A stretch of DNA of 64,000 nt, taken from the sequence record MN781580; one strand, 5' to 3'. A model generated the notes under the pieces. That model had not been told where the DNA came from and did no database searches. It saw only the letters and a program-made list of their open reading frames with translations. Source of the DNA: Shigella phage KRT47. How positions within the stretch are numbered: the first letter of the stretch is position 1; every line of letters begins with the position of its first letter. Shown piece after piece: positions 8,603 to 38,042 of the stretch. Both the position numbers and the translations under genes were made by a program.

Positions 8603-9073
8603 TTAATCATGTGTCCACACCCCATCGGTATTTGACCAAAGTCGCTGATTATCTGATCCTCGCCACAGCTTTTTAGTCGGAAGATTTTTCTCATACTTCC
8701 CATCAATAATAACATCAACATATTTAAGCATTTCTAGTTGTTTAATATCTTCAAACTTATATCCTGTCCACAACCAAATGCTTTTATTGGGATAAAGATT
8801 TTTAATAGTTTGAACCACAGAGTGAATCACGTCTCTGTTATCAGGATAAAGAGGGTCACCTCCGGTTATAGTTAATCCTTCTATATAATCATTATTCAAA
8901 CACTGAATCAGTTTTTCTAATGTCTCTCCGGTGAATGGAACGCCATTTCTAGCGTTCCATGTTGATTTATTATAACACCCTTCACATTTATGCAAACAAC
9001 CTGTAACGAAAAGAACGACCCTGCAACCAGGGCCATTCACAAAATCACAGGGATAAAATCTATCGTAATTCAT
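8603..9073 (-). CDS. nrdG: anaerobic ribonucleotide reductase activating protein (radical SAM)
   Basis: 156 aa; CxxxCxxC cluster (CLHKCEGC); overlaps nrdD stop. Confidence 0.88.
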   Translation of the reverse strand: MNYDRFYPCDFVNGPGCRVVLFVTGCLHKCEGCYNKSTWNARNGVPFTGETLEKLIQCLNNDYIEGLTITGGDPLYPDNRDVIHSVVQTIKNLYPNKSIWLWTGYKFEDIKQLEMLKYVDVIIDGKYEKNLPTKKLWRGSDNQRLWSNTDGVWTHD

Positions 9074-10887
9074 TGGTGTTTAACCCTATGCATGATTTCT
9101 TTATTTTTACCGAGATTAAATCCGCGCTCGTTCGGATTTCCCAAATAACCACATGTTCTTCTTATGGTATTCATCTTTTTAGGATCAGTTTCTCCACAAA
9201 TAGAACAAACAAATCCGTTTTCAGTAGGAGTCATTTCATGGGTACTTCCACATGTAAAACATTTATCTACTGGCATATTAACACCAAAATAATCTAAATG
9301 TTGTGCAGCATAATCCCATACGGCCTCAAGACCTTTTAAGTTATTTTTCATATCAGGAAGTTCAACATAAGAAATGTGACCACCTGTCGCAATGAAATGA
9401 TATGGCGCTTCACGAGAAATCTTTTCAAACGGAGTAATATTTTCTTCTACTGAAACATGGAAACTGTTAGTGTACCAGCCTTTATCGGTAACATCTTTTA
9501 CACTTCCATATTTTTCTGTATCAAGTTTACAGAAGCGATAACAAAGGTTTTCAGCAGGAGTCGAATATAAACTAAAAGCAAATCCAGTTCTTTCAGTCCA
9601 CTGTTTAAGATGAGCATTCATTTTAGTTAAAATTTCTCGTCCAATATCACGACCGACAAGAATATTCAATTCGTGAATACCAATGTATCCTAAAGACACT
9701 GAACTTCTACCGTTTTTAAATAACTCAATTATGTCGTCATCAGGTTTAAGACGAACCCCGAATGCACCTTCTTGGTAAAGAATAGGAGCAACAGTAGCTT
9801 TAACTCCTTTTAAGGAACTAATTCTACACATCAAAGCTTCAAAACATAAATCCATTCGTTCATTGAATAATTCAGCAAATTTCTGTTCATTGAACTGTGT
9901 TCCAATATAAGAATCTAACGCGATGCGAGGAAGATTCAGTGTTACAACACCAAGATTATTACGTCCATCAAGAATTTCATTACCAGTCGAATCTTTCCAT
10001 ACGCTCAAGAAACTACGGCATCCCATCGGAGAAACAGGAACAGATGAACCAGTGATAGCTTTATTGTTCTTAGCTGAAATAATATCAGGATACATCCTTT
10101 TGCTTGCACACTCTAGAGCAAGTTGCTTAATGTCGTAATTCGGATCGTCTTTATAAAGATTAACGCCTTCTTCAACGAACATAACAAGCTTAGGGAAAAT
10201 AGGAGTTATTCCATCACGACCAAGACCTTTAATACGATTTTTCAGAATTGCTTTCTGAATCATTCGTTCAGTCCAGTCAGTTCCCGTACCAAATGTAATT
10301 GTTACAAAAGGCGTTTGTCCGTTTGAACTAAAGAGAGTATTTACTTCATATTCATAAGCTTGGAATGCATCGTATACGTCTTTTTCTGTTTTAGATTGAG
10401 CATAATTCAACGCATCAGCGATTTGCCATTTTTCTGCATCCTCAATATGTTTTGCATAGGTGCGTTTAACATAAGGAGAAAGTACTTTATCTACATTCGC
10501 AAAAGTCGTTCCGCCATATTGATGGGAAGCAACTTGCGCAGTAATTTGTGCCATAATTGCAGTAGCAACGCCAATTGATTTAGGAGTTTCAATCTGTGCA
10601 TTACCAAGCTTAAATCCGTTCTCAAGCATTCCTTTTAAATCTACTAAACAGCAATTAGTAAATGGAAGAGCAGGGGAATAATCAATATCATGGAAATGAA
10701 TAATTCCGCTTTCATGCGCTTTCATAATAAAAGACGGGACCATATTTTTGGCAATGTGTTTAGACACAATACCAGCCATAAGGTCCCGTTGAGTTGGAAA
10801 AACACGAGAATCTTTATTAGCATTCTCGTTTAAAAGGTCTTTATTAGTTTTATGAATCAATCCTTCAATTTCTTTTTCAATTGTCAT
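9070..10887 (-). CDS. nrdD: anaerobic ribonucleoside-triphosphate reductase (glycyl radical enzyme), uninterrupted
   Basis: 605 aa continuous ORF; C-terminal Cys cluster and glycyl-radical motif RRTCGYLG. Confidence 0.93.
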   Translation of the reverse strand: MTIEKEIEGLIHKTNKDLLNENANKDSRVFPTQRDLMAGIVSKHIAKNMVPSFIMKAHESGIIHFHDIDYSPALPFTNCCLVDLKGMLENGFKLGNAQIETPKSIGVATAIMAQITAQVASHQYGGTTFANVDKVLSPYVKRTYAKHIEDAEKWQIADALNYAQSKTEKDVYDAFQAYEYEVNTLFSSNGQTPFVTITFGTGTDWTERMIQKAILKNRIKGLGRDGITPIFPKLVMFVEEGVNLYKDDPNYDIKQLALECASKRMYPDIISAKNNKAITGSSVPVSPMGCRSFLSVWKDSTGNEILDGRNNLGVVTLNLPRIALDSYIGTQFNEQKFAELFNERMDLCFEALMCRISSLKGVKATVAPILYQEGAFGVRLKPDDDIIELFKNGRSSVSLGYIGIHELNILVGRDIGREILTKMNAHLKQWTERTGFAFSLYSTPAENLCYRFCKLDTEKYGSVKDVTDKGWYTNSFHVSVEENITPFEKISREAPYHFIATGGHISYVELPDMKNNLKGLEAVWDYAAQHLDYFGVNMPVDKCFTCGSTHEMTPTENGFVCSICGETDPKKMNTIRRTCGYLGNPNERGFNLGKNKEIMHRVKHQ

Positions 10888-24490: not shown

Positions 24491-25072
24491 CTAACCGAGC
24501 TTTTTAGTTAATTCATTCCAATGTTTTCTGCACAAAGAAACATAAATTTCATCACCAATACAGATTTGATTACCTTCTTTAACTGGTGTTCCATCTTCCA
24601 TTAATCGAGCTGTCATAATAGCTTTTTTACCACAATGACAAACTGCTTTTAGTTCAATAAGTTTATCTGCAATCGCCAAAAGTTCTTTAGAACCTTCAAA
24701 TAATTTTCCAGCGAAATCAGTCCTTAGTCCATAAGCCATAACAGGAACATTATATGTATCAACAATTCGGCTTAATTGATGCACCTGTTCAGTTTTTAAA
24801 AACTGAGCTTCATCTACAAATACACAATGAATATCTTTTTGTGCTTCAGCCCATTTATAGAACTCAAAAATATCCATATCATCCGTAATAATATTCGCTT
24901 CCTGCTTAATTCCAATGCGAGAAACGACTTCACAGACAGAATCGCGAGTATCAATAGCAGGTTTAAGAACTAATACACCCATTCCGCGTTCTTTATAATT
25001 ATGCGCAGCAGTCAAAAGAGAAGCAGATTTTCCAGCATTCATTGCTGCATAAGTAAAAATTAAACTCGCCAT
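24491..25072 (-). CDS. tk: thymidine kinase
   Basis: 193 aa; Walker A AMNAGKS; C-terminal zinc cysteines; T4 Tk length. Confidence 0.9.
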   Translation of the reverse strand: MASLIFTYAAMNAGKSASLLTAAHNYKERGMGVLVLKPAIDTRDSVCEVVSRIGIKQEANIITDDMDIFEFYKWAEAQKDIHCVFVDEAQFLKTEQVHQLSRIVDTYNVPVMAYGLRTDFAGKLFEGSKELLAIADKLIELKAVCHCGKKAIMTARLMEDGTPVKEGNQICIGDEIYVSLCRKHWNELTKKLG

Positions 25073-25081
25073 ATCACCTTC

Positions 25082-25267
25082 TTAAAGCGTATTCACATAA
25101 GCTATTAATTCGTTTTCTTTCTTATCAAACCGGTCAGCAAATTCTTCTTGCTGTTCGGGAGATAGCGGGCCGTATTCATCATAAAAGGTGTTTGCTTCTG
25201 TATGCTCATCTAGAAGTTCATGGATAAGCTCAAACAATTTATCTTTTTGTTCTTTGCTTAGGCTCAC
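25082..25267 (-). CDS. hypothetical acidic small protein
   Basis: 61-aa ORF. Confidence 0.55.
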   Translation of the reverse strand: MSLSKEQKDKLFELIHELLDEHTEANTFYDEYGPLSPEQQEEFADRFDKKENELIAYVNTL

Positions 25268-25436
25268 AGTATGTCAATCCCCAAAAGTTTTAAAATGACT
25301 CGTTTCTGATTCATAACCGCTACGATTGAATGACCGTTGGGGTCTTTTTGACCTGATCCAATTATAAATCCTTTTTGCGCAGAAAGTTTAATCAAAACAT
25401 CAAGTTCACGTAATAATTGATATTTTAAATCATCAT

Positions 25437-25643
25437 TCATTTTGGTTTACCTTCTTTAACGAAATCAGGATAAGGATAAAATCCTGAATAAAATCCTTCA
25501 CCTTTATGATTGATGCATCCTTTATTAGAACAATAGCACCAATAATCGAAATCACAAGCCATTTCATCGTTGCATAAAGCAAAAACAACCGGCCACTTAC
25601 ACTTTTCACAGTGGGCATTTTTAAGAATACTAGTTTGGCTCAT
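25437..25643 (-). CDS. cysteine-rich small protein (probable metal binding)
   Basis: start at MSQTS Met giving ATGA overlap; 10 Cys in 68 aa (HCEKCK ... CYCSNKGC). Confidence 0.55.
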   Translation of the reverse strand: MSQTSILKNAHCEKCKWPVVFALCNDEMACDFDYWCYCSNKGCINHKGEGFYSGFYPYPDFVKEGKPK

Positions 25644-25852
25644 AACCATGTAACCTTTAAGCAATATTCTTCTACATGTTGTTTACGACCTTTCTTATCA
25701 ATAAAGGTATATTCAACGAATGTTCCAATGTAGTCTTTATCTACATCATGTGGACTATTAATTGGGCATTTAGTACGGCAAATGCGTTCCCATTGACGAA
25801 TAATTTCTGCTTTGTTTTTAGGATCAAACGGATGCGGGTAATGTACTTTCAT
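25640..25852 (-). CDS. hypothetical protein
   Basis: 70-aa ORF with GGTGG RBS. Confidence 0.55.
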   Translation of the reverse strand: MKVHYPHPFDPKNKAEIIRQWERICRTKCPINSPHDVDKDYIGTFVEYTFIDKKGRKQHVEEYCLKVTWL

Positions 25853-26303
25853 AATCCACCACTATTAAATCAATATCAGGAGTAAACATGTCGATTAATT
25901 TAGAAACCTTATCCCAATCACCGCCAGCAATACCGCAACCTATGCGTGGAATGTAAATTACCGGTTTAAACAAAAGGGTTTCTGCCTGTAGATTTAATTC
26001 TATCATGCAGTTTACTAAAGCACCATAATCAAGATTAGGACCTGGTTCGTATTGCGTATACAGGTTATAGCATATACCAAATCCTGTAGGACTATGTTTA
26101 AAAACAATAGACATATCGCCTAATTTATCACGAGAACCGTACTCGGTAGTGGTTTTATCTATTTCTAAAATTTTGGGATAGGCTCTTGCTAATTGACCTG
26201 CTACGCCAGAGCCCATTGTGTGGAAGCAATTACACCCGTGTGCAATAATATTACCTTGAAGAAATAGGGCGACAATATCGCCCTTGATATATTTTACAAT
26301 CAT
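25824..26303 (-). CDS. macro-domain-like protein (ADP-ribose binding/processing fold)
   Basis: 159 aa; N-terminal AHGCNCFHTMGSGVAG and C-terminal PRIGCGIAGG resemble the two macro-domain glycine-rich motifs. Confidence 0.65.
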   Translation of the reverse strand: MIVKYIKGDIVALFLQGNIIAHGCNCFHTMGSGVAGQLARAYPKILEIDKTTTEYGSRDKLGDMSIVFKHSPTGFGICYNLYTQYEPGPNLDYGALVNCMIELNLQAETLLFKPVIYIPRIGCGIAGGDWDKVSKLIDMFTPDIDLIVVDYESTLPASV

Positions 26304-26641
26304 CTAGTACTCAATCCTCGATTATAAGAATCTACTAAACGGTCAACCATTGAATGACAAGCGGCTTTATCTTTCTCCTCCGCAACTGAACATTCTAAGG
26401 TATTCCACTTTTTAGCATATCGTTTTAACAATGTATCATTTTTGTATCTGCTTGATTTATCTCTTTCTCCGTCTTTATATGCATATATTAATTTCTGTGC
26501 AAATTCAGCTTGGCATGCTTTATTTTTCCCGCAATAATCCGCTGCAGTACGGTTTACATACTCTCTAATTTCAGTATATGATGTATCTGCTAACGCAGAA
26601 AATGAAATTAATCCTATACATAAAACCAAAATTTTAGTCAT
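26300..26641 (-). CDS. secreted/periplasmic small protein
   Basis: 113 aa; N-terminal signal peptide MTKILVLCIGLISFSALA; several cysteines. Confidence 0.65.
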   Translation of the reverse strand: MTKILVLCIGLISFSALADTSYTEIREYVNRTAADYCGKNKACQAEFAQKLIYAYKDGERDKSSRYKNDTLLKRYAKKWNTLECSVAEEKDKAACHSMVDRLVDSYNRGLSTR

Positions 26642-27179
26642 TTACTATTTCCAAAAGTTTATTATTTTTAAGGTAATTAGCCTTTTCTAGGACTTCAGAA
26701 GCATATTTAGAACCTGCTTTAACATTCCATCCCGAATTATAAGAGGATATTGCTTTTCTTATATCGCCCTTATGTATATTTAACCAATAAGAAAGTTCAA
26801 TGTACGCCCAGGAAGCTGAATTGGACCGTTTATTCAACATTCTTTTTATTTCAGCATCGGTCATATTATAACCAAGTTCCTTAACTCTTGCTCGCATAGT
26901 AGGCAAATAATTTTGGAACATTCCGTAGGCGTGATGCTTTGGTTTAGATTTTAAATTAACTCCGCCAGAGCTTTCTTGCCATAAAATGGCTGCCATTATA
27001 TGACCTAATCCGCTCTTGTGGATATTTTTGTGTGTTTTATATTTTCCATCCTTAGAAAATTGTTCCCCGAATTGATACGCGTAACGCATGTTATCGAGTT
27101 GGACATTACTGAAAGTATGCTCGGAGCTATGTGCCATCATTGAAATGGCCAATAGACCAGCGAGTAGTGCTTTTCTCAT
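26634..27179 (-). CDS. secreted lytic-transglycosylase-like protein
   Basis: 181 aa; signal peptide MRKALLAGLLAISMMAHS; ES...GMFQ...YN motif arrangement reminiscent of SLT domain. Confidence 0.6.
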   Translation of the reverse strand: MRKALLAGLLAISMMAHSSEHTFSNVQLDNMRYAYQFGEQFSKDGKYKTHKNIHKSGLGHIMAAILWQESSGGVNLKSKPKHHAYGMFQNYLPTMRARVKELGYNMTDAEIKRMLNKRSNSASWAYIELSYWLNIHKGDIRKAISSYNSGWNVKAGSKYASEVLEKANYLKNNKLLEIVND

Positions 27180-27186
27180 GCTTACC

Positions 27187-27648
27187 TCATTGAGTTTTAA
27201 TTACTGCTTTAGAAGCCTTTCCTGGTAAACGACGACTGTTGATAATTGCCATCCTGCATTGAAGCGACGGGTCTTTGAACTTCGCATTAGGTTTACAAAC
27301 TGTAAATCCAAGCCAAAGATTTCCATCTGTGATTTCTAAACGCCCAGGACGATATTCAACCCCATCAATAAAATCCTCGTCAATGTCCGGACGCGGAGGC
27401 ATACTCAGGAATTCATTAACTTCTAAAACATGGTCTTTTATTTTGTGGAATAATTCAAAAACATATGTCTCATCAATCTCCCGTTGAATTGCACGGTCAA
27501 GAAGATGCTGAGAATATTTTAGATGAAACGATGAGACCCCTGCTGCTTTTGATGCCTCACGAATCTCATTGTTAATTTGACGAAACTCCGACTCAAAGTG
27601 ACGACGGAGCTTATTTCGACGGATAAAAACTTCTGTGTTGATAGTCAT
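27187..27648 (-). CDS. regB: endoribonuclease RegB
   Basis: 153 aa; sequence matches recalled T4 RegB from MTINTEVFIRRNKLRRHFESEF. Confidence 0.88.
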   Translation of the reverse strand: MTINTEVFIRRNKLRRHFESEFRQINNEIREASKAAGVSSFHLKYSQHLLDRAIQREIDETYVFELFHKIKDHVLEVNEFLSMPPRPDIDEDFIDGVEYRPGRLEITDGNLWLGFTVCKPNAKFKDPSLQCRMAIINSRRLPGKASKAVIKTQ

Positions 27649-27675
27649 GTTATTCTCCTCTTAACTGATAGAAAA

Positions 27676-27705
27676 ATTATACCACAGTCAAGAGGAAAAG
27701 TAAAC
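27676..27705 (-). promoter_or_regulatory. early promoter for regB
   Basis: minus strand GTTTAC, 18 nt, TATAAT, followed by AGGAG RBS and the regB ATG. Confidence 0.7.
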
Positions 27706-27707
27706 AG

Positions 27708-27986
27708 TTATTCTTTAAATCTAATCAATTTATTCATAGACTTTGAAACTTCTGCACGAACCTCATGTAGGTTTTTGAGCTGTTCAAGACGCTGCTCATA
27801 GTAAGCAATTTCATCTTCTTCGAGACAGTCCTGTGAATCTTCTTTAAGATAACGTGCATAGTCCTGGAAAGCTTTACGGACTACTTCCTGGAAGTCATCA
27901 AGACTTTGAATTTTCTTAGGAGCAACAGATACACGACGAGGGGCAGTATAATACTCATAACCAAACCCTGCGCTTAATTGAGCCAT
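27708..27986 (-). CDS. hypothetical small protein
   Basis: start at [13 protein letters not shown] Met giving TAATG overlap. Confidence 0.5.
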
Positions 27987-28252
27987 TAATATTTTTCCTC
28001 TGGTTGGAACACAGCACGACAAGCCCACATACTGGCTTCTTTGAGTTTCGTTTTAGCAATAGTTAACTGATCGAGGCTTTCAGCATAATTCTTTGCGAAT
28101 TCACAGTCTTCACAATTATTTAGTGCTTCCCAGAATTCATCATATAAAGCATCAAAGATAAGTCCCAAACGAACTTCAGCGTCTTTGATAGCATTCACTT
28201 TACCGATTTTCTCTTCAGTGTGCGGCTTATAACCTTTAATGTCTTCAATCAT
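27986..28252 (-). CDS. hypothetical small protein
   Basis: start at MIEDIKGYK Met; 88 aa. Confidence 0.5.
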
Positions 28253-28466
28253 ATTTGACTTCCTCACCAGTACATAAATCATATTCAACTAAACGAATAG
28301 GTTCATGAATGCCATATCCTTGAACAGAAATTTCTGTCGTAGGATAAATTCCATCAATATCACCCATATTCCATGCTTCATTAAATTGTTGTTCGCCTGA
28401 ATTACTAAACCATTCGGCGAAAGCATTTAGCACATCTTTAGAACCTTCAATAATTATCTTTGCCAT
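28245..28466 (-). CDS. hypothetical small acidic protein
   Basis: 73-aa ORF. Confidence 0.55.
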   Translation of the reverse strand: MAKIIIEGSKDVLNAFAEWFSNSGEQQFNEAWNMGDIDGIYPTTEISVQGYGIHEPIRLVEYDLCTGEEVKYD

Positions 28467-28828
28467 TACAAACTCTCAGTAAAGGTACGAGCGATAACGT
28501 CGCGCTGCTGTTCCGGAGTCAGAGAGTTAAAGCGAACTGCATAACCGGATACACGGATGGTCAGCTGCGGATATTTTTCCGGATGCTTAACTGCATCTTC
28601 CAGAGTTTCGCGACGCAGAACGTTAACGTTCAGGTGTTGACCACCTTCAATTTTAACTGTAGGCTGTGGTTCAATTTCAATTTCACGGGCATGCAAACCG
28701 TAGAAAATTTCTGGGTCTACAAAAGAGTCCTCTTTAAAGGTTTTAGAGACAATAATTCGTGCTTGAATACCATCTTCAAAATAAATAGTACCTTTATGCG
28801 TGCCTTCAAGAATTTGATATGCTTTCAT
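28466..28828 (-). CDS. autonomous glycyl radical cofactor (GrcA/YfiD-like)
   Basis: 120 aa; C-terminal half matches the conserved glycyl-radical domain ([10 protein letters not shown] ... [11 protein letters not shown]). Confidence 0.85.
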
Positions 28829-28835
28829 ATAAACC

Positions 28836-29165
28836 TCAATTAGAAAATAAATTTATCCAAGATTGTTCTTTAATTAAAAATGGCTCAGAATCATATGCCA
28901 TTAAACTTTGGGTGATTAGTCCTTTAAAAGGTCCATCAATAAATTCCATGGTAAAATATGGAATTTTATTCATTAATCTTGCATTAGGAGCAGTGCACAA
29001 AACTCTGCATCCTTTGAATACGCCTTTTTGTAATTTGTATTGCTTGGGATAAAATTCGCTCAAAATGTTATTATTTGCCAAAATTTCAAAATGATTCACC
29101 AATTTATTTTTAATAGTTTTTGGCGAAAAATAAAGATATTCGAAAAGCTGTGTGTCTGTCATCAT
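28836..29165 (-). CDS. hypothetical protein
   Basis: 109-aa ORF. Confidence 0.6.
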
Positions 29166-29704
29166 TGCATTCCAATCACAAAAAATTGAGGACGAACTGT
29201 TTCACCTGTTTCAGCATTATAGCTTCGACAACAGTGTTGCACAGTTTCAATATGAATATCGTAAATTTTATCCATATCAGGAGATTTGACAGGCTCATCA
29301 ATTATATACAAAATTCGCGAAAGCGATAAACCTCTGAACTTGCTTCCTTTATTACCAATAAAACTGCGCACAGAATCAGTAAATAAACGAAAACGTATAT
29401 CATCATTAGAATAACGCGAAAATTCCTTTTTAATGTTATTTGCAGAAATTTTAGCGTAAGCTGAAGTATTAGAAAGAACGATAACTGTTCCGCCATCATA
29501 CAACCAATTAGCAGCAAAGTTAGTCACAGCAATTGATTTACCGGATTGACGTCCACCATCTAGTCGAAGTGTGCAATACTGTTTAAGTAATTCTTCAAAT
29601 GGCGGGATATATTCGTTTTTACAAATTTCTTCTACTCTAGCATCAGAATGGTGTGTAAAAGCATTCATCAGGGATAGATAAGGACCAGTTAAAAATGTTC
29701 TCAT
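29162..29704 (-). CDS. P-loop-containing hypothetical protein
   Basis: 180 aa; Walker A-like GGRQSGKS. Confidence 0.6.
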   Translation of the reverse strand: MRTFLTGPYLSLMNAFTHHSDARVEEICKNEYIPPFEELLKQYCTLRLDGGRQSGKSIAVTNFAANWLYDGGTVIVLSNTSAYAKISANNIKKEFSRYSNDDIRFRLFTDSVRSFIGNKGSKFRGLSLSRILYIIDEPVKSPDMDKIYDIHIETVQHCCRSYNAETGETVRPQFFVIGMQ

Positions 29705-29844
29705 TTCTTCTCTCTAAGTTTGGGCCATTCCATGGCGCATGAATTGTCCATTTCTGTATTTACCCATTACCGCACTCAGGCTCGACCTTATTACAGGTTG
29801 GCGGGAATCCCTCACAGAATCATGAGGTCCAGGTTGTTCCCATA

Positions 29845-30318
29845 TTATTTGAACGATTTAACGTACTGAATAGAACCTTTACTATTTACAAAGGCAATTT
29901 TACCATTTTTATTATACATGGTAGCAGTACGTTGATAGCCATAAGTTTGTTTACCAGATTGATAACCAACTAATGCAAAATTATCTTCACCCATTTTATT
30001 CTGTTTAGCGCGAATGCGTTCATGACCATGTGCCATAAGAACCTTAGCGTCGCCAGTTGCAATGGATCTACGAGTTTTTTCATCTTCAACTGTATTAACA
30101 AAGTCGTCAAATGAATCAAATTTAGCATGAGATTTATTATACAGTTTTCCATCTACTGCATAATTATATCCCTGTACATCCATCTCAACTTCTGTACCAT
30201 CATCCAATACAGCAGTGATTTTTTGACCTTTTTTAAATTTCAAAAGATCAGTAAAAGATTCAGCAATAATTTGAGAATTAATAGCTGCTTCAGTAATAAA
30301 TTCTTGATATGTTTTCAT
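29845..30318 (-). CDS. internal (capsid-packaged) protein with capsid-targeting sequence
   Basis: 157 aa; N-terminus MKTYQEFITEA matches the T-even internal-protein capsid-targeting sequence. Confidence 0.75.
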   Translation of the reverse strand: MKTYQEFITEAAINSQIIAESFTDLLKFKKGQKITAVLDDGTEVEMDVQGYNYAVDGKLYNKSHAKFDSFDDFVNTVEDEKTRRSIATGDAKVLMAHGHERIRAKQNKMGEDNFALVGYQSGKQTYGYQRTATMYNKNGKIAFVNSKGSIQYVKSFK

Positions 30319-30334
30319 GTGTATCCTTTAATTT

Positions 30335-30652
30335 TTATTCTTTAGGGAAGTTTTTAGAATATGCATCATAAAGCTTATTTCCAATACGGCGGAAAACTCT
30401 AGCAGCAAAACGATTTTCTGGGTTTTTAATCATGATTTGCATCATATAAGTACCCGCGTCAGAAAGAGCTTCTTCATAGTACCCGTTAATTTCTTTAAGA
30501 GTCCTACGTTTACCACCAGGACCATCAACAGTGATTTTCCATTTACCTGTAGAAGTGCGACTTGGCGGCTCAACTTGTTCAATCCAGATATAACCGCCTT
30601 CTACACGTTGTCCTGCAGCAGATTCTGCAATAAATTCTTTATACGTTTTCAT
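30335..30652 (-). CDS. internal (capsid-packaged) protein with capsid-targeting sequence
   Basis: 105 aa; N-terminus MKTYKEFIAES. Confidence 0.75.
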   Translation of the reverse strand: MKTYKEFIAESAAGQRVEGGYIWIEQVEPPSRTSTGKWKITVDGPGGKRRTLKEINGYYEEALSDAGTYMMQIMIKNPENRFAARVFRRIGNKLYDAYSKNFPKE

Positions 30653-30706
30653 GTGTTTCCTTTAAATATTTTAATTAGTAATTTATCTATTCAAGTAACT
30701 GTGAAT

Positions 30707-30736
30707 ATACTATCACAATTCCAAGAGAAAGTAAAC
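30707..30736 (-). promoter_or_regulatory. early-type promoter upstream of internal-protein gene
   Basis: minus strand GTTTAC, 18 nt, TAGTAT. Confidence 0.5.
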
Positions 30737-30740
30737 AACT

Positions 30741-37024: not shown

Positions 37025-37100
37025 TGGTCGAGGCAGTAGGGATCGAACCTACGACCTAGGACTTAGAAGGTCCTTGCTCTTCCTTCTGAGCTATGCCCCG
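37025..37100 (-). tRNA. tRNA-Arg (anticodon TCT)
   Basis: 76-nt cloverleaf on minus strand; anticodon loop CTTCTAA; T-loop GGTTCGATCC; CCA encoded. Confidence 0.85.
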
Positions 37101-37104
37101 TAAT

Positions 37105-37180
37105 TGGGGTGACCGATGGGAGTCGAACCCATGACTACGAGAATCACAATCTCGAGTTCTACCAACTGAACTACGGCCAC
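37105..37180 (-). tRNA. tRNA-His (anticodon GTG)
   Basis: 76-nt cloverleaf; anticodon stem CGAGA/TCTCG with loop TTGTGAT; discriminator C; CCA encoded; no encoded G-1. Confidence 0.7.
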
Positions 37181-37294
37181 ATTAATACCTACTCCAACAA
37201 TCAAGATGTCTTCACACGAAATTAAGAGAAGAGTGATCAGTTCAACCCCGATAATCGCGTCAAGTAGATATTAATGTGACAGTTGTCACAAATT

Positions 37295-37369
37295 TGGCGG
37301 ACGTGATAGGATTCGAACCTATAACCAATCGCTTAACAGGCGATCGCTCTGCCATTGAGCTACACATCC
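37295..37369 (-). tRNA. tRNA-Asn (anticodon GTT)
   Basis: 75-nt cloverleaf; anticodon stem ATCGC/GCGAT with loop CTGTTAA; T-loop TTCGAAT; CCA encoded. Confidence 0.85.
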
Positions 37370-37373
37370 AAAT

Positions 37374-37460
37374 TGGTGGGGAGTGATGGAGTCGAACCAC
37401 CCGAGTCGCAATGACAATGAATTTACAGTCCACACCGCTACCTCTACGGGATAACTCCCC
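37374..37460 (-). tRNA. tRNA-Tyr (anticodon GTA), long variable arm
   Basis: 87-nt type II structure; acceptor GGGGAGT/ACTCCCC; anticodon loop CTGTAAA; CCA encoded. Confidence 0.8.
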
Positions 37461-37469
37461 AAATTAATT

Positions 37470-37544
37470 TGGTGGCCCTGGGTGGAATTGAACCACCATC
37501 TGGCGATTATGAGTCGCTTGCTTGAACCTTCCAGCTACAGGGCC
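37470..37544 (-). tRNA. tRNA-Ile2/Met (anticodon CAT)
   Basis: 75-nt cloverleaf; anticodon loop CTCATAA; abuts tRNA-Thr as in the known T4 Thr-Ile dimeric precursor. Confidence 0.8.
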
Positions 37545-37545
37545 T

Positions 37546-37621
37546 TGGTGCTGATTGACGGAATCGAACCGCCGACCTTCTCATTACAAGTGAGTTGCTC
37601 TACCTACTGAGCTAAATCAGC
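37546..37621 (-). tRNA. tRNA-Thr (anticodon TGT)
   Basis: 76-nt cloverleaf; anticodon loop CTTGTAA; CCA encoded. Confidence 0.85.
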
Positions 37622-37626
37622 AAAAT

Positions 37627-37716
37627 TGGCGGAGGCGATAGGATTTGAACCTATGAGTCGCCGGAGCGACTGCCGGTTTTCAAGACCGGTGCATTAAACC
37701 ACTCTGCCACGCCTCC
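37627..37716 (-). tRNA. tRNA-Ser (anticodon TGA), long variable arm
   Basis: 90-nt type II structure; anticodon stem CCGGT/ACCGG with loop CTTGAAA; variable-arm hairpin GTCGC/GCGAC. Confidence 0.85.
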
Positions 37717-37718
37717 AG

Positions 37719-37792
37719 TCTCCATACAAGGATTTGAACCTTGGACCTCCTGATCCCAAATCAGGCGCTCTACCAAACTGAGCTACACGGAG
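37719..37792 (-). tRNA. tRNA-Pro (anticodon TGG), CCA not encoded
   Basis: 74-nt cloverleaf; anticodon loop TTTGGGA; 3' end abuts tRNA-Ser (dimeric precursor arrangement). Confidence 0.8.
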
Positions 37793-37802
37793 TAAATTAA
37801 AT

Positions 37803-37876
<74 letters not shown>

Positions 37877-37881
37877 AAATT

Positions 37882-37968
37882 TGGTGCGAGAAGTGGGACT
37901 CGAACCCACAAGGAAATCATTCCGCAGCATTTTAAGTGCTGTGCCTTTACCAATTTGACCATTCTCGC
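37882..37968 (-). tRNA. tRNA-Leu (anticodon TAA), long variable arm
   Basis: 87-nt type II structure; anticodon stem CAGCA/TGCTG with loop CTTAAAA; CCA encoded. Confidence 0.85.
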
Positions 37969-37969
37969 G

Positions 37970-38042
37970 CTGGGAATAAAGGACTCGAACCTTTGCATCC
38001 TGGAATCAAAATCCAGTGCCTTACCAACTTGGCTAATTCCCA
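37970..38042 (-). tRNA. tRNA-Gln (anticodon TTG), CCA not encoded
   Basis: 73-nt cloverleaf starting with U1-A72 pair; anticodon stem CTGGA/TCCAG with loop TTTTGAT; abuts tRNA-Leu. Confidence 0.8.

Follow-up and report, generated by a model that had tools for sequence, protein, structure and literature searches.

A host-identical tract within the glycyl-radical spare part gene vs.6 of Shigella phage KRT47

Two spare part proteins for oxygen-damaged pyruvate formate-lyase (PFL) have been validated experimentally, Y06I of phage T4 and YfiD of Escherichia coli, the latter also called GrcA (PMC8683613). For both proteins it has been described that the activating enzyme of PFL, PFL-AE, installs the glycyl radical in vitro and that oxygen-cleaved PFL is thereby reconstituted, as far as the work of Wagner 2001 is summarized in PMC8683613 and also in PMC13450708. 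Known spare parts are so far confined to formate lyases (PMC13450708). The N-terminal region of GrcA is disordered and promotes the installation of the radical by PFL-AE (PMC13450708).

A homologue of these proteins is encoded by Shigella phage KRT47 (sequence record MN781580), of which a stretch of 64,000 nucleotides was analyzed, called the window in the following. The open reading frame (ORF) at positions 28466-28828 on the minus strand is the orthologue of T4 vs.6, the gene of Y06I, and probably represents a spare part for the PFL of the host, in a mosaic gene in which a tract of E. coli grcA has recently overwritten the phage sequence. The gene as such is not new: the spare part was characterized in 2001, its biochemical activity is known, and it is often annotated as GrcA in phage genomes. 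The tract modestly raises the otherwise low interest of this gene.

The spare part gene and its mosaic structure

The ORF starts with ATG and encodes 120 residues (13.8 kDa). The protein is identical to T4 Vs.6 in 119/120 residues, the sole difference being Arg73 in the window and His73 in T4. On DNA level it is 99.7% identical to vs.6 of phage Kha5h, which is annotated as GrcA, and a megablast search retrieved 756 phage records, mostly of the genus Tequatrovirus. In RefSeq, T4 vs.6 is labelled "autonomous glycyl radical cofactor GrcA"; equating Y06I with T4 vs.6 rests on this annotation and on the presence of only one such gene in T4. The homologue occurs in a single copy per genome, and a tblastn search revealed homologues in 1588 phage records, comprising many genera of the Straboviridae, T5-like Demerecviridae, Aeromonas phages and one Yersinia jumbo phage. 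The gene order vs.8-vs.7-vs.6-vs.5-vs.4-vs.3-regB-vs.1 is the same in the window, Kha5h and T4. Flanked by unrelated small phage genes, vs.6 is free-standing rather than forming the terminal part of a complete glycyl-radical enzyme.

The domain assignment is in line with this. The Pfam family Gly_radical (PF01228) matches residues 61-101 with an E-value of 2.8e-18 and 66.8 bits (cut-off 22.2), and phrog_1209 covers the full length of the protein (1.2e-62). Among solved structures, the top match is E. coli GrcA (6OWR, E = 8.6e-42, residues 22-120 aligned), followed by PFL, of which residues 697-759 align to residues 58-120 of vs.6 (E = 5e-26). A preliminary description of this DNA had read the ORF, with exactly the same coordinates, strand and length, as a GrcA/YfiD-like spare part orthologous to T4 Y06I, and the alignments to both proteins as well as the synteny support this reading. 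It had also called the C-terminal 60 residues nearly identical to the glycyl-radical domain of GrcA. The similarity is in fact complete, since all 60/60 residues, ending with TFTESL, are identical to E. coli GrcA. The stated ability of Y06I to repair oxygen-cleaved PFL is correct according to PMC8683613 and PMC13450708. For the protein of the window itself, radical installation and PFL repair would be expected by analogy to the 119/120-identical T4 protein and to E. coli GrcA.

A codon-by-codon comparison of vs.6 with E. coli grcA divides the gene into three segments. The first is the phage-type N-terminal half (28651-28828, minus strand), comprising codons 1-59 and one further nucleotide. It is an AT-rich and distant homologue of the GrcA N-terminus with 48% nucleotide identity and 16/74 (about 22%) identical residues. 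Its GC content at third codon positions (GC3) is 0.22, and 30 long ORFs from the same window have 0.229. The homology to GrcA is still detectable here, since hidden Markov model alignments reach residues 20-120; one of the aligned stretches in the N-terminus of E. coli GrcA reads ARCIVAKAGYAEDEVV.

The second segment is a patch of 175 nucleotides (28476-28650, minus strand), corresponding to nucleotides 179-353 of the gene and to codons 60-118. Its product is the glycyl-radical domain with the RVSGY motif and the radical Gly95. This patch is identical in 175/175 positions to nucleotides 200-374 of grcA from E. coli strain 504239, K-12 MG1655 gives an equal top score, and an identity of 97-98% is reached in all 5426/5426 complete genomes of E. 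coli. Its GC3 of 0.44 is host-like, and the probability that the same codon is chosen in 57/57 cases under phage codon usage is about 1e-30.

The third segment is a phage-type tail (28466-28475, minus strand) that runs from the final base of codon 118 through codons 119 and 120 to the stop codon (G AGT TTG TAA). The final three codons GAG AGT TTG all differ synonymously from the E. coli codons GAA AGC CTG, and they are like those of other T4-like genera (GAGAGTCTA, GAGAGTATA). Judged from the sequence, such a tail is what would be left over if a conversion tract had been resolved within a phage gene that was already in place.

The observation of an exact E. coli tract is robust. When the whole 64-kb window was compared with all E. 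coli genomes by megablast, the patch was the only chromosome-like DNA; no E. coli genome match was obtained for positions 1-25000, 25001-28400 and 50001-64000, and within 28900-50000 matches were confined to tRNA genes on plasmids of about 100 kb. In the literature searched, a prior account of this nucleotide identity was not found, although an earlier mention is possible.

The age of the tract can be estimated by comparison with other phages and bacteria. Toward E. coli, the tract is 98.3% identical with a synonymous divergence (dS) of 0.023, in contrast to Citrobacter grcA, which is 92% identical to E. coli with a dS of 0.40. The identity of the tract is lower to K. aerogenes (89%), Serratia (83%) and Yersinia (82-83%). 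The identical sequence of 60 amino acids is common to many bacterial genera, and only the DNA points to an Escherichia-type donor allele. Within the phages, the Mosigviruses JS09 and ATK47 carry the tract at 98.3-98.9% nucleotide identity and a dS of 0.05-0.07 relative to the window, whereas their flanking genes vs.8, vs.7, vs.5, regB and vs.1 are 64-83% identical with a dS of 0.8-2.4. The N-terminal half of vs.6 lies at a dS of 0.40-0.46 in the same comparison. At the flanking rate, the probability of at most three synonymous differences in 44 sites is below 3e-9. Therefore, the tract is much younger than the split of Tequatrovirus and Mosigvirus and entered both after their divergence. About 640 phage records contain the patch at an identity of at least 95%, compared with about 648 records containing the N-terminal half of the Tequatrovirus/Mosigvirus type at at least 80%. 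In T4-like genera from other hosts, namely Slopek-, Karam-, Pseudoteven- and Krischvirus, the gene occupies this locus too, but is written in ordinary phage codons and lacks an E. coli-like tract. Altogether, the patch is recently host-derived.

This suggests that codons 60-118 of an old, AT-rich phage homologue of grcA have been overwritten by a 175-nucleotide tract of E. coli grcA, either by homologous recombination with host DNA or by gene conversion from it, in an event that is recent on the scale of phage-genus divergence. The part that has to fit the host PFL and its activase PflA is therefore an exact copy of the host sequence. The gene as a whole is under purifying selection, with a nonsynonymous divergence (dN) of 0.03 versus a dS of 0.23, and so is the N-terminal half, with a dN/dS of about 0.14-0.15 toward Mosigvirus. 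It may be speculated that the phage has tuned the N-terminal half, with the docking domain being taken over as a copy.

A hairpin resembling a terminator (AGGTG-TTGAC-CACCT, then a stretch rich in T) is located on the antisense strand where the host-identical tract has its 5' edge (28632-28646, plus strand). Its inverted repeat belongs to the E. coli grcA sequence itself, and such sites occur in this region as often as expected from shuffled sequence. Scans for promoters and terminators around vs.6 likewise gave nothing better than shuffled sequence, so that vs.6 is assigned to no transcription unit.

Recurrent conversion or a single capture

How the tract came to be present in two phage genera was addressed by comparing about a dozen phage alleles with four E. 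coli alleles. The E. coli alleles vary at tract positions 18, 30 and 45. Position 45 is also variable in the phages of both genera, with C, T and once G, and T4 carries CAT at this codon. Here, the CGC/CGT polymorphism of E. coli segregates within Tequatrovirus (C in the window, T in JK45) as well as within Mosigvirus (C in ATK47, T in JS09), and the O157-type G at position 18 is found in the IMG/VR contig L126. The phage alleles are 0-6 nucleotides away from E. coli alleles, and several of them (window, Kha5h, IMG/VR contigs L118 and L124) each agree completely with one of the E. coli alleles.

One explanation is an ongoing and recurrent gene conversion, in which fragments of host grcA recombine with vs.6 and reset the phage copy to the current host allele, a form of concerted evolution. 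We consider the chance of this to be just short of even. The small distances to the E. coli alleles, the shared variants at positions 45 and 18 and the near agreement between the number of records with the patch and with the N-terminal half all speak in its favor. T4 readily recombines with homologous DNA present in the cell, as known from marker rescue from plasmids. However, the shared polymorphisms are third-position transitions, which recurrent mutation could also yield, and the comparison comprises few sites in a small number of alleles. The 5' and 3' boundaries of the patch are identical in all copies examined, which also fits a single event, although independent events would also be forced to end at these boundaries by the extent of the homology. 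Furthermore, the E. coli-type patch persists in Tequatroviruses that were isolated on Yersinia, Salmonella or Proteus.

The other explanation assumes a single and recent event in which the tract was captured or converted from E. coli, after which it spread among co-infecting T-even phages of the genera Tequatrovirus and Mosigvirus by phage-phage recombination. The uniform boundaries are readily accounted for in this way, and the dS of the N-terminal half between the genera is below that of the flanking genes, which suggests that the gene has moved between them. On the other hand, this explanation requires a far lower age of the patch than of the N-terminal half of the same gene (dS 0.05-0.07 versus 0.4), so that a transfer of the whole gene alone is insufficient, and the occurrence of both E. 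coli alleles of position 45 in both genera is left unexplained. A single capture is a real possibility, to which we give a probability rather below one half.

Tentatively, and with a similar reserve, the radical-domain half of vs.6 may be held identical to host grcA in that the host chromosome repeatedly serves as the donor of a gene conversion in the course of lytic infection. If this is true, a T-even phage that destroys the DNA of its host would still evolve in concert with one host gene, and its spare part would always fit the local PFL and PflA. The 175-nucleotide patch would then record the bacterial species in which a phage lineage has recently replicated, for example by the E. coli allele in Tequatroviruses isolated on Yersinia, Salmonella or Proteus.

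On protein level, a matching to the host is also seen in other phages. Klebsiella phages of two genera encode Klebsiella-type residues (LLDAVEH) and are identical to K. aerogenes in 59-60/60 residues, and the domain of an Aeromonas phage is closest to GrcA of Aeromonas (56/60). In contrast, the proteins of Enterobacter phage HK6 and of the E. coli Krischvirus KMB43 do not match their hosts. From these sequences, host matching on protein level is a tendency only. Among the bacterial sequences, the 253-kb contig NZ_JBQPOM010000029.1 (L013), labelled "Vagococcus sp. WN89Y", contains an Enterobacteriaceae-type grcA whose protein is identical to the Klebsiella/Phytobacter type; this Firmicute-labelled assembly is probably mislabelled or contaminated.

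The enzyme served and the weaker alternatives

For the role in infection, the following sequence of events is proposed. The host activase PflA (PFL-AE) would place the radical on the glycine of the RVSGY motif, Gly95, and the small protein would then dock into a host PFL that has lost its own C-terminal radical domain to cleavage by oxygen. In this way, the conversion of pyruvate to acetyl-CoA and formate would be restored. The purpose might be to maintain fermentative production of ATP and acetyl-CoA under fluctuating oxygen. A second benefit might be that the supply of formate is kept up, the reductant of the class III ribonucleotide reductase NrdD/NrdG of the phage.

The genes of this anaerobic reductase are present in the window as well. 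The gene nrdD is located at 9070-10887 (minus strand; NF006732 with 908 bits, TIGR02487 with 565 bits) and encodes the C-terminal radical motif RRTCGYLG, and the gene of its activase, nrdG, at 8603-9073 (minus strand; TIGR02491 with 199 bits, cut-off 126). The preliminary description had placed both genes about 18 kb from vs.6; with these NCBIfam matches the distance is 17.6 kb, and likewise in T4-type genomes. The same description had proposed that the spare part protects glycyl-radical enzymes of the host or of the phage itself. Of this proposal, the host PFL holds, whereas protection of the phage NrdD is not supported by the sequence.

It has to be considered that the protein works for the class III reductase of the phage nevertheless, either as a spare domain for oxygen-cleaved NrdD or as a substrate of NrdG, with PFL or a different enzyme being its target after activation. 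Here, the gene order in distant phages is suggestive. In Aeromonas phage phiWae14 (L012, 376-3378), the order is nrdD-nrdG-grcA with a stop/start overlap of 4 nucleotides, the same adjacency is found in PX29, and in the Yersinia jumbo phage fHe-Yen9-04 (L008, 279-4543) the homologue lies between the two genes (nrdD-orf-grcA-orf-orf-nrdG). Furthermore, an earlier genome paper proposed a role of vs.6 in nucleotide metabolism (PMC1524935), and purifying selection acts on the N-terminal half, which is specific to phages; in GrcA, the N-terminus affects radical installation by the activase (PMC13450708). However, the radical domain of vs.6 is of the PFL type with an RVSGY motif, and a BLASTP comparison with NrdD of the window gave an E-value of 2.7 with the radical site not aligned and no similarity to the NrdD C-terminus. 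The latter consists of a Zn-ribbon (...CSICGE...) followed by RRTCGYLG instead of a PFL-type motif. Therefore, a structural replacement of the NrdD radical loop is not supported. Since the domain is an exact copy of the PFL-directed domain of host GrcA, and known spare parts serve formate lyases only (PMC13450708), we regard a service to the own reductase as unlikely. Beyond annotation, the sequence thus sorts the proposed targets: the PFL-directed domain of the host is mimicked exactly, and NrdD is not.

Still, the gene order in the distant phages suggests a functional tie of the spare part to the class III reductase. Class III ribonucleotide reductases, including the T4 enzyme, draw their reducing equivalents from formate (PMC4493059). 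Since the phage copy mimics the PFL-directed domain and is unlike NrdD, the recurring linkage to nrdD/nrdG is better explained by metabolism, namely by formate, than by a repair of NrdD; an activation of Vs.6 by NrdG would be a possible alternative. Given that PFL is the source of formate in the cell, it is plausible that the phage sustains PFL partly to feed NrdD.

A further alternative concerns the tract itself. Its nucleotide identity might result from selection at synonymous sites, by codon optimization or mRNA structure, after an old capture and without a recent transfer. The protein sequence of the radical domain is indeed extremely conserved across bacteria, and E. coli grcA is highly expressed with optimized codons. 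Nevertheless, this is very improbable, since other phage genera encode the same domain with ordinary phage codons (74-83% nucleotide identity to E. coli, GC3 about as in their N-terminal halves), the DNA of bacterial genera that share the identical 60 residues differs at 8-12% of nucleotides, the long ORFs of the window have a GC3 of only 0.23, and the identity of 57/57 codons has the probability of about 1e-30 given above. Two other sources of the identity were rejected: an assembly artefact or contamination is ruled out because the patch recurs in about 640 phage records that are independent of each other, the T4 reference among them, and a transfer from phage to host because bacterial grcA is syntenic (ung-grcA-eamB) and of uniform composition along its length.

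Some points weigh against the reading of vs.6 as a spare part for host PFL with a recently acquired E. coli tract. On the equivalog model TIGR04365 (NCBIfam GrcA), vs.6 scores 153.3 bits, below the cut-off of 170 (residues 20-120 aligned to 25-126). It falls below because of its divergent N-terminal half, and the cut-off is the threshold of one model built on bacterial GrcA, not a biochemical criterion. The bacterial comparison set was without other Escherichia species and Salmonella, so that the donor is pinned to an Escherichia-type allele only. In the literature searched, neither a role during infection in vivo nor a phenotype of a vs.6 mutant was found. The tie between formate and NrdD is one that we infer, and in this genome 17.6 kb separate vs.6 from nrdD/nrdG.

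The last of these points comes from the Klebsiella phages. In the Jiaodavirus PKO111 (L004, 1501-1863), the C-terminal 60 codons have a GC3 of 0.60, versus 0.23 for the N-terminal 60 and 0.62 for K. aerogenes. This gene, whose protein is of the Klebsiella type (LLDAVEH), is thus a second mosaic in terms of composition. A near-identical bacterial donor was not found for this domain, the best identity being 86-89% among the matches listed, which comprised 80 GTDB loci, K. aerogenes grcA, three ENA contigs and 80 metagenome loci; donors may be unsampled. A search of metagenomes for the exact 29-nucleotide pattern of PKO111 gave no match. A general rule of host tracking on DNA level is therefore not supported, as the Klebsiella phages are without a near-identical donor, and identity to the host on DNA level is so far specific to T-even phages of E. 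coli.

Neighboring features and comparison with known systems

The immediate surroundings of vs.6 are compact. A Shine-Dalgarno sequence GAGG (28834-28837, minus strand), read directly from the sequence, is located 5 nucleotides before the ATG and overlaps the stop codon of vs.7. Downstream follows vs.5 (28245-28466, minus strand; phrog_1986, 1.3e-43), with the gene order as in T4 and Kha5h, and its ATG overlaps the stop codon of vs.6 (TAATG). Upstream, vs.8 (29162-29704), a gene of unknown function, contains a P-loop-like GGRQSGKS and matches weakly to the ATPase region of the phage large terminase (phrog_2, E = 7.9e-06).

The gene denV, coding for endonuclease V, is not found at its usual place between the genes of internal proteins and vs.8 (29705-30740) nor elsewhere in the 64 kb, where a tblastn search with DenV of Kha5h gave a best E-value of 0.67. 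This slot is occupied by an ipIV-like internal virion protein (29845-30318) and an ORF of 105 residues (30335-30652), whose start MKTYKEFIAE resembles the capsid-targeting N-termini of T4 internal proteins. Eleven tRNA genes are present at 37025-38042 (Arg, His, Asn, Tyr, Met, Thr, Ser, Pro, Gly, Leu and Gln). The region of tRNA-Tyr, including tRNA-Asn (about 37309-37465), is 82-90% identical to tRNA clusters on plasmids of about 95-110 kb in 255 E. coli genomes, with no match to a chromosome. This suggests that T-even phages and phage-like plasmids share tRNA cassettes.

With respect to vs.6, the synonymous sites of this region are otherwise saturated between the two phage genera, and the exact 175-nucleotide E. 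coli tract within it represents a clean natural case of recent homologous exchange from the host to a virulent T-even phage. Such exchange could be measured with its help, and the tract could also be used as a marker of host history.

The closest known system is Vs.6 (Y06I) of T4, which shares with the protein of the window 119/120 residues, the length, the place between vs.7 and vs.5 and the E. coli-like patch. It differs in His73, encoded by CAT, one step from the common E. coli codon CGT, whereas the window has Arg73 as in E. coli GrcA, encoded by the K-12-type CGC. E. coli GrcA (YfiD, 6OWR) has the C-terminal 60 residues and 175 nucleotides in common with vs.6, as well as the domain order and a homology over residues 22-120. 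In contrast, its N-terminal half is only about 22% identical, and with 127 residues it is 7 longer than the 120 residues of the phage protein. The phage gene in turn is encoded by a lytic phage, has a phage-type codon usage outside the patch and scores 153 versus 170 bits on TIGR04365.

The C-terminal glycyl-radical domain of PflB (PDB 1H16 and others) and TdcE is the domain that vs.6 replaces, and the PFL core is identical. Unlike this domain, vs.6 is free-standing, and the DNA of its patch matches grcA (97-98%) and not tdcE (76%).

As a mosaic, vs.6 resembles psbA of marine cyanophages. There, a metabolic gene of lytic T4-like phages has become a host/phage mosaic by intragenic recombination, with a host-like segment inside phage-like sequence. 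The tract of vs.6 differs from this case in that it is short (175 nucleotides), an exact allele of the present-day host, and precisely covers the domain that docks into the host enzyme, and in that it occurs in coliphages that degrade the DNA of their host.

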